DNA from: Escherichia phage vB_EcoM_G4507
Sequence record: NC_054919.1
Reading direction: 5' to 3' (one strand)
DNA: 64,000 nucleotides
In this document: positions 43,252-46,597 of the stretch, piece by piece
Layout: each line of letters starts with the position of its first letter
Numbering within the stretch: the first letter of the stretch is position 1
The notes under the pieces: model-generated
What the model saw: only the letters and a program-made list of their open reading frames with translations
Databases searched by the model: none
Told to the model about the DNA's origin: nothing
Program-made: the position numbers and the translations under genes

Positions 43252-43530
43252 TCAAAATGTAATTTCTAACCAATCACCATCACGCTGATCACTATTGACT
43301 TTAAAGCTAAATCCTTCTTTTCTCAGCCAATCACCAATTTCTTCAGTAATCAATTTATCGCGAGCAGTACAATAATAACTAAAATATGTTTTACCTTGTT
43401 CAGCTGCTTTATTAGCAAGTTCCGAAAAATCTTTAATAAAACACTCTAGCTTAAACTGTTTACTTTTAAGTGCTTTTTCACGTAATTGATTAGCAAAAGA
43501 TTCATTTTCATAAAGATCATACTGTTCCAT
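43252..43530 (-). CDS. hypothetical protein (T4 24.2 position)
   Basis: Track ORF 92 aa; overlaps the upstream ORF by 14 nt. Confidence 0.5.
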   Translation of the reverse strand: MEQYDLYENESFANQLREKALKSKQFKLECFIKDFSELANKAAEQGKTYFSYYCTARDKLITEEIGDWLRKEGFSFKVNSDQRDGDWLEITF

Positions 43531-43732
43531 TTTTCACCTTTTTATTAATATGCCTTTTTCTATAGACAACTTTTTCTCGAGTTTCAAATTTATTCTTAGC
43601 AGTCATAGCTCGAGCCCATAATACAGCCACTTCTTTCGCCTGTAAGTTTAATTCACGAGCAATTTCAATGAATGACTTTCCAGACTCATGAAGAGTAAAC
43701 ACCACAACCTCAGTTCTCATAATCAATCTCAT
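43517..43732 (-). CDS. small protein with helix-turn-helix-like segment (T4 24.3 position)
   Basis: Track ORF 71 aa; segment SGKSFIEIARELNLQAKEVAVLWARA resembles an HTH DNA-binding motif. Confidence 0.45.
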   Translation of the reverse strand: MRLIMRTEVVVFTLHESGKSFIEIARELNLQAKEVAVLWARAMTAKNKFETREKVVYRKRHINKKVKNGTV

Positions 43733-43800
43733 GTTATCGAGTTGATGCCATTATATACATCATTTTCTGAGTATGTTTTGTGTGCTTTCAAAATGAAGAA

Positions 43801-43816
43801 AGGGGCCGAAGCCCCT
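43801..43816 (-). terminator. terminator hairpin after hoc
   Basis: Minus strand GGGGC-TTCG-GCCCC followed by TTTCTTCATTTT. Confidence 0.6.
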
Positions 43817-43821
43817 TATGA

Positions 43822-45240
43822 TTATGGATAGGTATAGATGATACCAGTTTCTAAAGCAGTTTTATGAATGATGTATCCATTGCGTGATTCTTGAACATCA
43901 ACTTCTGGATAGTCTTTCATCATCTTCTGAAGAGTGTAACGATGCAGGTAGTATTTACTATCTGGATCTTCAGTTTTCCAATCTTTACCTTCTTCGGTCA
44001 TTTTTTGGATTTCATCCATAACCCACCAACCGCACCAGATATAAGCTGAAGTGCGATGTGGAAGAGGATGAACATAAGGCAATTCACCTTCTGGTTCCGG
44101 AGCAACTTTATCAGTTACCTGAACTTGGCCTGTTGCTTTAACTGTTTTACTATCATAGTCGGTTGCTGTAACGGTTGCAGTAACTTCAATAGTTTGACTT
44201 CCAATAGATGATGTATCAACCGTGTATACATTAGTTGATTCTTCTACAGGAGAAGAATCTTTCTTCCATGAATATTCGATTTGTGCTTCTTCTGGAGCAT
44301 CCGTAACATTAGCAGTAAATGTAGCCGAAGCATCTTGCTGAACGTTAATAGAAGGAGGAGTCAATGTAACCTGTGGATTCATTGTCTTCTTATTAACTGT
44401 TAATGATACTTCATTAGAAGTAACTTCCTTTTCATTGTAATTTTCAGCCGTTACTTGGGCTACGCATTTAATTCTTTTTACTCCACTTGTAGTTGGAGTA
44501 TAGTTAAATGTAGAGTTAGTTTCTCCACCAATTTGAGAATCATCTACATACCATTTATATGTAGCAGACGCTCCATCAGGTTGAGAAACCAAGGCAGCAG
44601 TAAATTGAACTGGGGTTCCAATTACTCCAGCTGGAGGACTATCAGGAGTTACTGCCAAGGTAGTTGTCTGCGTCTTTTTATTAACAGTCAGTGACACTTC
44701 ATTGGAAGTAACTTCCTTTGTATCATAATCTGTCGCGGTTACTTGAGCTACGCACTTAATTGTTTTAACTCCGCTTGCGTCAGGAGTGTAATTGAATGTA
44801 GTGCTAGTTGCTTCGCCCACAGGAGAACCGTCAACGTACCATTGATACGTAGCGTTTGCACCTGATGGCTGTGAAGCTAAGGCAGCGGTAAATTCAATTG
44901 GAGTTCCAATCACTCCAGCATCAGGGCTACCAGGAGTTACTGCCAAAGTAGTTGTTTGTGTCTTATTTTGAACTGTGATAGTTGTACTAATTTCAGCTGT
45001 TTCAGGTTCAGATTCTGCAACTTGATTGGTTGCAACTACTTTAATAGTCTTTTGACCGGCAGGTCCTTTTAGTACATAACTAAAAGTTGCTGACGTTTCT
45101 TCCTGTGGAGCGTCGTCTACAGTCCAAGCATATGTAATAGGTCCATCTCCAGTTTGACCACTGGGTGTAGCAGTAAACTGCTGAGTCTGATCTATAACTC
45201 CAGTAGGTGTTTTAGGAGTTATATCAACTGTAAAAGCCAT
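43822..45240 (-). CDS. hoc: highly immunogenic outer capsid protein Hoc with four Ig-like domains (one duplicated)
   Basis: Track ORF 472 aa; N-terminus MAFTVDITPKTPTGVIDQ and C-terminal capsid-binding region (ELPYVHPLPHR..IYTYP) as T4 Hoc; two tandem ~96-aa Ig-like repeats (~77% identical). Confidence 0.85.
   Translation of the reverse strand: MAFTVDITPKTPTGVIDQTQQFTATPSGQTGDGPITYAWTVDDAPQEETSATFSYVLKGPAGQKTIKVVATNQVAESEPETAEISTTITVQNKTQTTTLAVTPGSPDAGVIGTPIEFTAALASQPSGANATYQWYVDGSPVGEATSTTFNYTPDASGVKTIKCVAQVTATDYDTKEVTSNEVSLTVNKKTQTTTLAVTPDSPPAGVIGTPVQFTAALVSQPDGASATYKWYVDDSQIGGETNSTFNYTPTTSGVKRIKCVAQVTAENYNEKEVTSNEVSLTVNKKTMNPQVTLTPPSINVQQDASATFTANVTDAPEEAQIEYSWKKDSSPVEESTNVYTVDTSSIGSQTIEVTATVTATDYDSKTVKATGQVQVTDKVAPEPEGELPYVHPLPHRTSAYIWCGWWVMDEIQKMTEEGKDWKTEDPDSKYYLHRYTLQKMMKDYPEVDVQESRNGYIIHKTALETGIIYTYP
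44386..44673 (-). repeat. hoc internal tandem repeat unit (Ig-like domain, downstream copy)
   Basis: Encodes Hoc residues ~190-285 (TQTTTLAVTPDSPPAGVIGTPVQF...SLTVNKK); ~80% DNA identity to the adjacent unit. Confidence 0.8.
44674..44961 (-). repeat. hoc internal tandem repeat unit (Ig-like domain, upstream copy)
   Basis: Encodes Hoc residues ~94-189 (TQTTTLAVTPGSPDAGVIGTPIEF...SLTVNKK). Confidence 0.8.
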
Positions 45241-45249
45241 AAGTTATCC

Positions 45250-45930
45250 TTATTTTAATGTTACGAAAGAAGAATTACGTGTTTCACGAATTAGAACTGA
45301 TCCGTCACGATTAATGTAGTAAATTAAGCTAAATAAAGTTTGGTGTGCCGACGCATGTTCAAAACTAGTTGGGTGAGATTTCCAATCTGGGGTTTCAGCA
45401 ATCCATTGATAAATCCACCAAGGAACAGTGCAGAATCCTGGATTTTTTCCAATCAGCTGAAGATTCGGACTAAAGTTTTCCGGAAGAGTAAATACAGACG
45501 GCTTTTCAGATTCAATAATCTCAGCTACAGCCTGTTCGAATTTTTCTTCAACAAAAGGAGTATCTTCAATTAAAACAGTGGTATTTTCAGGAATTTTATC
45601 CGTTTCTACTACTTCAATTTTAATGTCAGATTTAACCGGAGAATCAATCAGAAGTGCTGCCTCTGGATTGACTTCTTCATCGTCATATTTTAATCCGTCT
45701 GCGGCATCAGCAGCATCAATTAAGTCTTTAATAGATAACCCATCAGTCTCTGGCATAGGTTCACTAGCGAGCTTCTGGAGAGCTTCTTCAATATCATTAA
45801 CGATATTATCAAAAGATTTATTCTTTTTGACCTTTATACCAAACTGTTCAGCATATTCAGCTAATTTAGCTTTAGCTTCTTTATTATCATCAAGAGCCTT
45901 CAGCTCTGCAATATAATCTTTATCTATCAT
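45250..45930 (-). CDS. inh: inhibitor of prohead protease Inh
   Basis: Track ORF 226 aa, length and position as T4 Inh. Confidence 0.75.
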   Translation of the reverse strand: MIDKDYIAELKALDDNKEAKAKLAEYAEQFGIKVKKNKSFDNIVNDIEEALQKLASEPMPETDGLSIKDLIDAADAADGLKYDDEEVNPEAALLIDSPVKSDIKIEVVETDKIPENTTVLIEDTPFVEEKFEQAVAEIIESEKPSVFTLPENFSPNLQLIGKNPGFCTVPWWIYQWIAETPDWKSHPTSFEHASAHQTLFSLIYYINRDGSVLIRETRNSSFVTLK

Positions 45931-45979: not shown

Positions 45980-46597
45980 ATGTACCACTTTGTATATGAA
46001 ACAACAAATCTAATAAATGGTAAAAAGTATATAGGAAAACACTCTACTGATGACTTGAATGATGGTTACCTTGGTTCCGGTAAGGCAATTCAGCAGGCTA
46101 TAAAGAAATATGGTGAAAACAATTTCTCTAGAACAATACTAAAAGAGTTTAAAACTTCCGAAGAAGCGTACATGTATGAAGAAGAAATTATAACTCCTGA
46201 AATAATAAAAAGCAAAAATTATTATAATATGAAACCTGGTGGAATTGGTGGAATTGTTATGACTACAGAGGTTATAGCAAAGATGAAAGAATCTTCCGCT
46301 AAGAGATTTGAAAACTCACCGGGCACGGTATTAGGTACAACTTGTTACACTAATGGAACTAAAAATATTTTTATTAAACCTGGAGAACTTGTTCCAGAAG
46401 GATTTGTAAAAGGAATGGTTCATCCTAATAGAAAGTCCAGAAAAGGATGTAAAGTCAAACCGACTACCACAGGAACTTTTTGGGTCAATAACGGTGCAAT
46501 AAATAAATTAATACAACCAGACGGTATTATTCCCGACGGATTTATTAAAGGTCGTCTCATGAAAAGAGATTCTAAAGGCAAATTTAGTAAGGCATAA
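45980..46597 (+). CDS. segE: GIY-YIG homing endonuclease
   Basis: Track ORF 205 aa; GIY-YIG module (HFVYETTNLINGKKYIGKH ... YYNMKPGG); position between inh and uvsW as T4 segE. Confidence 0.75.
   Translation: MYHFVYETTNLINGKKYIGKHSTDDLNDGYLGSGKAIQQAIKKYGENNFSRTILKEFKTSEEAYMYEEEIITPEIIKSKNYYNMKPGGIGGIVMTTEVIAKMKESSAKRFENSPGTVLGTTCYTNGTKNIFIKPGELVPEGFVKGMVHPNRKSRKGCKVKPTTTGTFWVNNGAINKLIQPDGIIPDGFIKGRLMKRDSKGKFSKA

Follow-up and report, generated by a model that had tools for sequence, protein, structure and literature searches.

The window analysed here is a stretch of 64,000 nucleotides from Escherichia phage vB_EcoM_G4507 (NC_054919.1). One open reading frame of 1419 bp on its minus strand, at 43822-45240 in the list of reading frames, encodes a protein of 472 amino acids. 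This protein matches PHROG 1149 ('Hoc-like head decoration') with an E-value of 4e-139, and phmmer aligns its residues 189-472 with residues 93-376 of the T4 Hoc chain 5vf3_Z (E 5e-221), T4 Hoc being 376 residues long. The prohead-protease inhibitor gene inh lies upstream (45250-45930) and a gene matching Pfam DUF2774 lies downstream (43517-43732). The order inh-hoc-DUF2774-Y10B-rnlB, in which DUF2774, Y10B and rnlB (RNA ligase 2) follow hoc, is common to the annotated loci of T4, Escherichia phage vB_EcoM_G4500 (hereafter G4500) and phage 107. A terminator-like hairpin (43800-43817, minus strand) stands directly 3′ of the hoc stop codon, and a putative terminator is annotated in both G4500 and vB_EcoM_G29 (hereafter G29). 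Based on the PHROG match, the match to the T4 Hoc chain and the synteny, the gene is hoc, coding for the highly immunogenic outer capsid (head decoration) protein of a Tequatrovirus, a T4-like coliphage.

Beyond inh, at 45980-46597 on the plus strand, the window has a 205-aa GIY-YIG reading frame (Pfam SegE_GIY-YIG, E 3e-09) between inh and the helicase gene. It is placed like segD in T4 and is absent from G4500, G29 and phage 107, in which uvsW begins at that position although their hoc is identical or almost identical to that of the window. The homing-endonuclease gene adjoining hoc-inh is thus a presence/absence polymorphism. An antisense reading frame inside the repeat described below (44455-44694, plus strand, 79 aa) was rejected as a by-product of the coding strand.

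Within hoc, a repeat search found two 288-nt copies, at 44384-44671 and 44672-44959, which are 76% identical and spaced 288 nt apart, and Tandem Repeats Finder reported a period of 288 at 44384-44964 (2.0 copies, 77% matches, score 694). In terms of the protein, and reading along the minus strand, the gene divides into an N-terminal Ig-like domain D1 (44962-45240, residues 1-93), repeat unit A (44674-44961, residues 94-189), repeat unit B (44386-44673, residues 190-285), a further Ig-like domain D3 (44098-44385, residues 286-381) and a C-terminal capsid-binding domain with the stop codon (43822-44097, residues 382-472). Units A and B are identical at 74 of 96 residues (77%) and at 219 of 288 nucleotides (76%), leaving 69 sites that differ, and this similarity is far above chance. 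The longest tract of identity between them is 16 nt, spanning nucleotides 16-31 of unit A (44931-44946, minus strand) and 44643-44658 in unit B. The initial annotation had placed hoc at these coordinates, with 472 aa against 376 aa in T4 and with tandem 96-aa units encoded by adjacent 288-bp stretches of the minus strand at about 77% protein identity; the list of reading frames and both repeat finders agree with it on all of these points.

The Ig-like character of the units is supported at the level of both profile and predicted fold. Pfam matches above the cut-off (given in brackets) comprise PKD at 42.6 bits (23.5), Ig_2 at 30 (27) and BiPBP_C at 35.3 (26.8). PKD and Ig_2 each match more than one stretch, with the best PKD stretch in unit B and the best Ig_2 stretch in unit A, so the two units share one fold and are not unrelated. 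Ig_3 and I-set match D3 at residues 289-374. AlphaFold modelling from 32 homologues (mean pLDDT 82, pTM 0.51) yields four beta-sandwich domains, in D1 (4-91), unit A (98-187), unit B (194-283) and D3 (290-376), each with a pLDDT of about 90. The inter-domain geometry of the model is unreliable and its C-terminal domain has a pLDDT below 50, so that homology to T4 Hoc was used for that domain instead. Foldseek searches against the PDB gave as top matches the four-Ig fragments Sidekick Ig1-4, Dscam Ig1-4 and ICAM-5 D1-D4 (E about 1e-13), which we use for fold class only, the TM-scores being low (0.16-0.32) as the inter-domain angles differ. The borders 93/94, 189/190 and 285/286 all fall within linkers predicted by the AlphaFold model, hence one unit corresponds to one Ig-like domain plus linker. 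The two units are adjacent, head to tail, in frame and of equal length with one structural domain each, and Pfam, AlphaFold and Foldseek together uphold the proposal of four Ig-like domains, as against three in T4, with the middle domain copied in tandem and in frame to give the extra one.

The other domains are related to the repeat to varying degrees. Of 87 residues aligned between D1 and unit A, 37 are identical, and unit A has 32 of 66 residues in common with D3. All four Ig-like domains are, judging from these identities, paralogous, with D1 an older paralogue of A given the residues that they share. The C-terminal domain is homologous to residues of about 281-376 of T4 Hoc, which places the protein in the Hoc family, and matches the Hoc-like PHROG 21694 at residues 408-472 (E 1e-41). 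It is almost invariant across homologues and differs from T4 by only two non-synonymous changes (dN 0.009). In D3 there is also a 12-nt mini tandem repeat (44160-44184, minus strand), which Tandem Repeats Finder gives 2.1 copies and which encodes VTATVTAT. A 468-aa relative, P0009, is 99% identical elsewhere and lacks exactly one 12-nt copy (four residues), and this repeat is a second, small copy-number polymorphism within hoc.

Comparison with T4 identifies which of the two units is additional. The T4 middle domain has a dS of 0.27 to unit B and of 0.89 to unit A, and since it is near B and distant from A, the extra domain relative to T4 is unit A. T4 Hoc (PDB 5vf3 and 8t1x) resembles the window gene in its locus, between inh and the DUF2774 gene; its domains 1-3 are orthologous to D1, unit B and D3 and its capsid anchor is almost identical. 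It differs in having no unit A, which in the window sits between D1 and the T4-type domain 2.

The same rates bear on the age of the repeat. By the method of Nei and Gojobori, units A and B differ by a dS of about 1.0, which is saturated, with a dN of 0.15 and an omega of 0.15, whereas the dS between the window and T4 over orthologous parts (D1, D3 and the C-terminal domain) is only 0.27-0.45. Each unit has counterparts of 95-100% identity in other genomes as against 77% to each other, and A-like units come first and B-like units second in nearly all two- and three-unit relatives. In 30 Tequatrovirus-type two-unit proteins that were sampled, the units within one protein are 74-85% identical and none are near-identical. 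These data indicate that the split between A and B is older than the divergence of the sampled Tequatrovirus lineages, and that both copies are under purifying selection. The duplication had been described as recent. The tandem Ig copy and the four domains stand, but the word 'recent' does not, as the A/B dS exceeds that between the window and T4 and the array is widespread.

We then considered how widely the array occurs. There are 677 matching phage records, and in 60 rows evenly spaced down their ranking a two-unit hoc is found in about 18 (about 30%) and a 1131-bp hoc of T4 length in 35; these figures are estimates from a sample and not a full count. A gene was scored as two-unit by a span of 1419-1425 bp or by one aligned piece covering both units. 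Of the best 120 protein clusters, 78 have a length of 376 aa, 29 of 472 aa and 9 of 567-570 aa, and one cluster each has 372, 375, 377 and 468 aa. The domain borders in this length series lie at residues 93, 189, 285 and 381, and the 568-aa forms have a distinct type, C, as their third unit. Comparing hoc length across relatives hence yields a series of 376, 472 and 568 aa, which corresponds to Hoc proteins with one, two or three copies of the 96-aa unit.

The window gene itself is not unique. Its hoc is 100% identical to that of G4500, and a metagenome contig in IMG/VR encodes a 100% identical Hoc protein (tblastn). The hoc of G29 is the same as that of the window except for a 55-bp internal duplication. 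This duplication is perfect and in tandem (MK327940.1; L001:1855-1964), repeats hoc nucleotides 355-409 in unit A (44832-44886 in the window) and shifts the frame, so that hoc is broken up and annotated as two CDSs, each a 'PKD domain protein'; the duplication could be either a real knock-out of a dispensable hoc or an assembly error. Separately, the annotation divides a two-unit hoc into a pair of CDSs ('Hoc part 1 / part 2') in several isolates, namely FriedrichMiescher, vB_EcoM-101117BS1, vb_GEC_SH_GT and vB_EcoM-UFV11, which suggests that frameshifts in the non-essential hoc are common in laboratory stocks or assemblies. In the 32-kb record MG010123.1, which bears the name 'Staphylococcus phage SAJK-IND', there is a hoc region of T4 type with 94-97% identity to the window; the record is probably mislabelled or contaminated.

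In order to follow the relationship between two-unit and single-unit genes, we turned to the 376-aa Hocs, among which near-identical versions of A and of B each occur as the only middle domain. Six single-unit genes were scored at the 69 nucleotide sites distinguishing A from B, with the window as reference, and at all 69 sites they are either all A or show a single switch from A to B (one with a few exceptions). The gene on the ENA human-gut contig L023 is all A, with its junction after unit nucleotide 285. The remaining five read A and then B, switching within unit nucleotides 16-31 in the Logan contig L025, 52-59 in the Logan contig L031, 76-83 in the isolate phage 107 (OQ599309), about 184-188 in the Logan contig L032 (the gene with a few exceptions) and 217-224 in L029 and L030, which are two assemblies. 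The L025 crossover, between unit nucleotides 15 and 32, coincides with the 16-nt tract that is the longest identity between A and B.

The flanks of these genes closely follow the window. D1 has 0-1 mismatches to the window in all six. Across D1, D3 and the C-terminal domain, L025, L031 and phage 107 match the window throughout, and L023 has three mismatches. L029/L030 and L032 agree fully with the window in D1 and the A part and then have 9 and 20 differences in D3, respectively. Over about 3.6 kb, a precise 288-bp gap and no more than four substitutions are all that separates phage 107 from the window (the DNA alignment rows read were those of G29, G4500, phage 107, teqhad and T4, and the end of one more, unlabelled locus). 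No B-to-A hybrid was found among the single-unit genes with window-matching flanks. An attempt to sort the full set of 78 single-unit proteins into A, B and hybrid types by the diagnostic sites of the window worked for window-near alleles only. More distant alleles, including that of T4, are patchy mosaics that are not readable as single crossovers, and for this reason the directional argument is confined to genes with matching flanks.

Deletion within an A-B array would leave 5′-A/B-3′ hybrids only, whereas equal exchange between A and B alleles would give hybrids of both orientations. The occurrence of five to seven junction classes, all of them in the A-to-B direction, favours repeated and independent contraction of a window-type array by unequal recombination. 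Equal recombination between A-only and B-only alleles could also produce A/B hybrids, and the one argument against it is that no B-to-A hybrid occurs in the junction classes, which number five to seven. Metagenome or Logan short-read assemblies are the source of four of the six single-unit derivatives, but the hybrids are unlikely to be assembly chimeras because the tracts common to A and B at the junctions, at 8-16 nt, are too short for de Bruijn mis-joins and because phage 107 is an isolate genome. The recent events that can be seen would then be losses of a unit, the opposite of gain.

Collectively, whole-unit differences in length and six junction classes (five A-to-B and one all-A) characterise hoc as a copy-number-variable cassette array. 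The explanation in which we have considerable confidence is that the array is a polymorphism of one, two or three units segregating across Tequatrovirus and contracting by unequal recombination between A and B. In such a model, recombination at short identical patches of 8-16 nt would remove one unit and leave a T4-length gene whose middle domain is a 5′-A/B-3′ chimera; the window array would be one state among the three, with both copies held under purifying selection. A lineage-specific, recent in-frame duplication of domain 2 in the window phage could account for the adjacency, common frame and equal length of the units, and for the single unit in the reference phage T4. Yet the synonymous divergence of A from B is greater than that of the window from T4 over orthologous parts, the A-then-B layout recurs in dozens of protein clusters and in about 30% of sampled records, and nowhere in the sampled arrays do the units depart from 74-85% identity towards near-identity, all of which makes a recent duplication highly improbable. 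Still harder to credit is a mis-assembly that expanded a single-unit gene. Tandem repeats are well known for causing assembly errors, and the G29 record has its suspicious perfect 55-bp duplication in unit A, but A and B differ at 69 of 288 nucleotides and are not copies that could be collapsed or expanded. Furthermore, the identical gene is present in independently deposited isolate genomes and the identical protein in the IMG/VR contig, the two-unit architecture is found in many isolates from different laboratories, and the reading frame is intact with both units under purifying selection; the feature is thus neither limited to a single assembly nor composed of near-identical copies.

Two other possibilities concern how the array arose and what it may do. 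The array might have been put together by unequal recombination between divergent A-type and B-type single middle-domain alleles of co-infecting phages. Recombination is frequent in T4-type phages, the single-unit Hocs in circulation include ones whose middle domain is A-like, B-like, C-like or mosaic, and the units contain patchy mosaics typical of exchange, of which the T4 pattern is an example. Against this, the single-unit genes nearest to the window are A-to-B hybrids and best read as deletion products of an array, and the order of A first and B second in nearly all arrays implies one or a few founding events at most. We regard this origin as unlikely, and it would alter only the origin story and not the nature of the feature. 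Somewhat less doubtful, although still tentative, is the idea that the middle-domain array acts as a recombination-driven generator of diversity, producing fibre-length variants and new chimeric Ig domains, with alleles of one, two and three units kept segregating by mucosal or immune selection. Loss would be frequent, and gain presumably so, at many junctions on the most exposed and most immunogenic protein of the capsid. Four of the single-unit genes have only 0-3 further substitutions relative to the window in the remaining ~840 nt, and this together with the six junction classes implies that deletion is fast compared with point substitution, in which case selection would be needed for the two-unit state to persist.

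The copy-number polymorphism contracting by A/B recombination can be set beside what is known of Hoc elsewhere. Fokine and colleagues describe Hoc homologues as strings of Ig-like domains ranging from one (Enterobacter phage PG7) to ten (Serratia phage Muldoon) (PMC10385173), and a two-Ig Hoc variant has been published for PNJ-9 (PMC11853027). Muldoon (ten Ig), PNJ-9 (two) and Klebsiella phage Marfa (four) all combine a conserved capsid anchor with a variable Ig string, as does the window, but differ from it in which domains are lost or multiplied. In the 471-aa Hoc of Marfa (MN044033.1, L008:1501-2916), two 94-aa units stand in tandem, 80% identical in protein and 76% in DNA; hoc in its relatives among Klebsiella and Enterobacter phages runs to about 375 or 280 codons, with three or two Ig-like domains. 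Since the duplicated domain in Marfa is of the D3 type, its duplication is an independent event in another genus.

Closer to the window, the Hoc of G4500 (QBO65873.1, annotated 'PKD domain protein') is the same 472-aa protein from an identical gene, in a genome where uvsW lies directly by inh in place of the segD-like GIY-YIG gene. G9062, PYps14T and BASEL phages have 472-aa Hocs of the same two-unit architecture from genes that are 90-96% identical. The 568-aa Hocs of Escherichia phages UGKSEcP1 and UGKSEcP2 carry A and B in the window order and belong to the same cassette family, but differ by an added third 96-aa unit of the C type, which brings them to five Ig-like domains. Both the family to which the window Hoc belongs and the way in which it varies are therefore known, and the exact sequence of this Hoc is already in GenBank. 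We found no description of the Tequatrovirus A/B/C cassette series or of the deletion hybrids in the literature searched, the coverage of which was incomplete, and they may have been published. The series and its hybrids are a modest addition and not a new kind of system, and as a discovery the finding is minor, the gene having been deposited and variable Ig number in Hoc having been published.

For T4, each major-capsid-protein hexamer carries a single Hoc monomer at its centre, and the monomer extends as a fibre of about 180 Å (PMC10385173). The capsid-binding domain of the window Hoc is near-identical to that of T4, hence we infer that it would likewise be placed singly at the hexamer centre on the mature head. 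By analogy, a fibre with the extra domain would be longer by roughly the length of one Ig domain, about 40-45 Å. The motif S-L-T occurs in unit A (S183-L184-T185) and again in unit B (S279-L280-T281), and S183-L184-T185 of domain 2 in the two-Ig Hoc of PNJ-9 is required for binding to fucosylated MUC2 (PMC11853027). The extra domain would, on this comparison, add a second copy of the motif needed in the PNJ-9 protein. Greater reach, avidity or altered adhesion or antigenicity as a result of the extra domain is plausible.

Hoc is implicated in mucus adherence and in antibody recognition, and T4 nanoparticle engineering relies on it as the chief display platform. Where the 376 aa of T4 are taken as the norm for this protein, it should be borne in mind that about 30% of sampled relatives have four Ig-like domains and that five-Ig forms exist. 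The extra domain can apparently be lost precisely, leaving a chimeric domain behind, and the number of units matters when adhesion or immunogenicity is compared between therapeutic T4-like phages.
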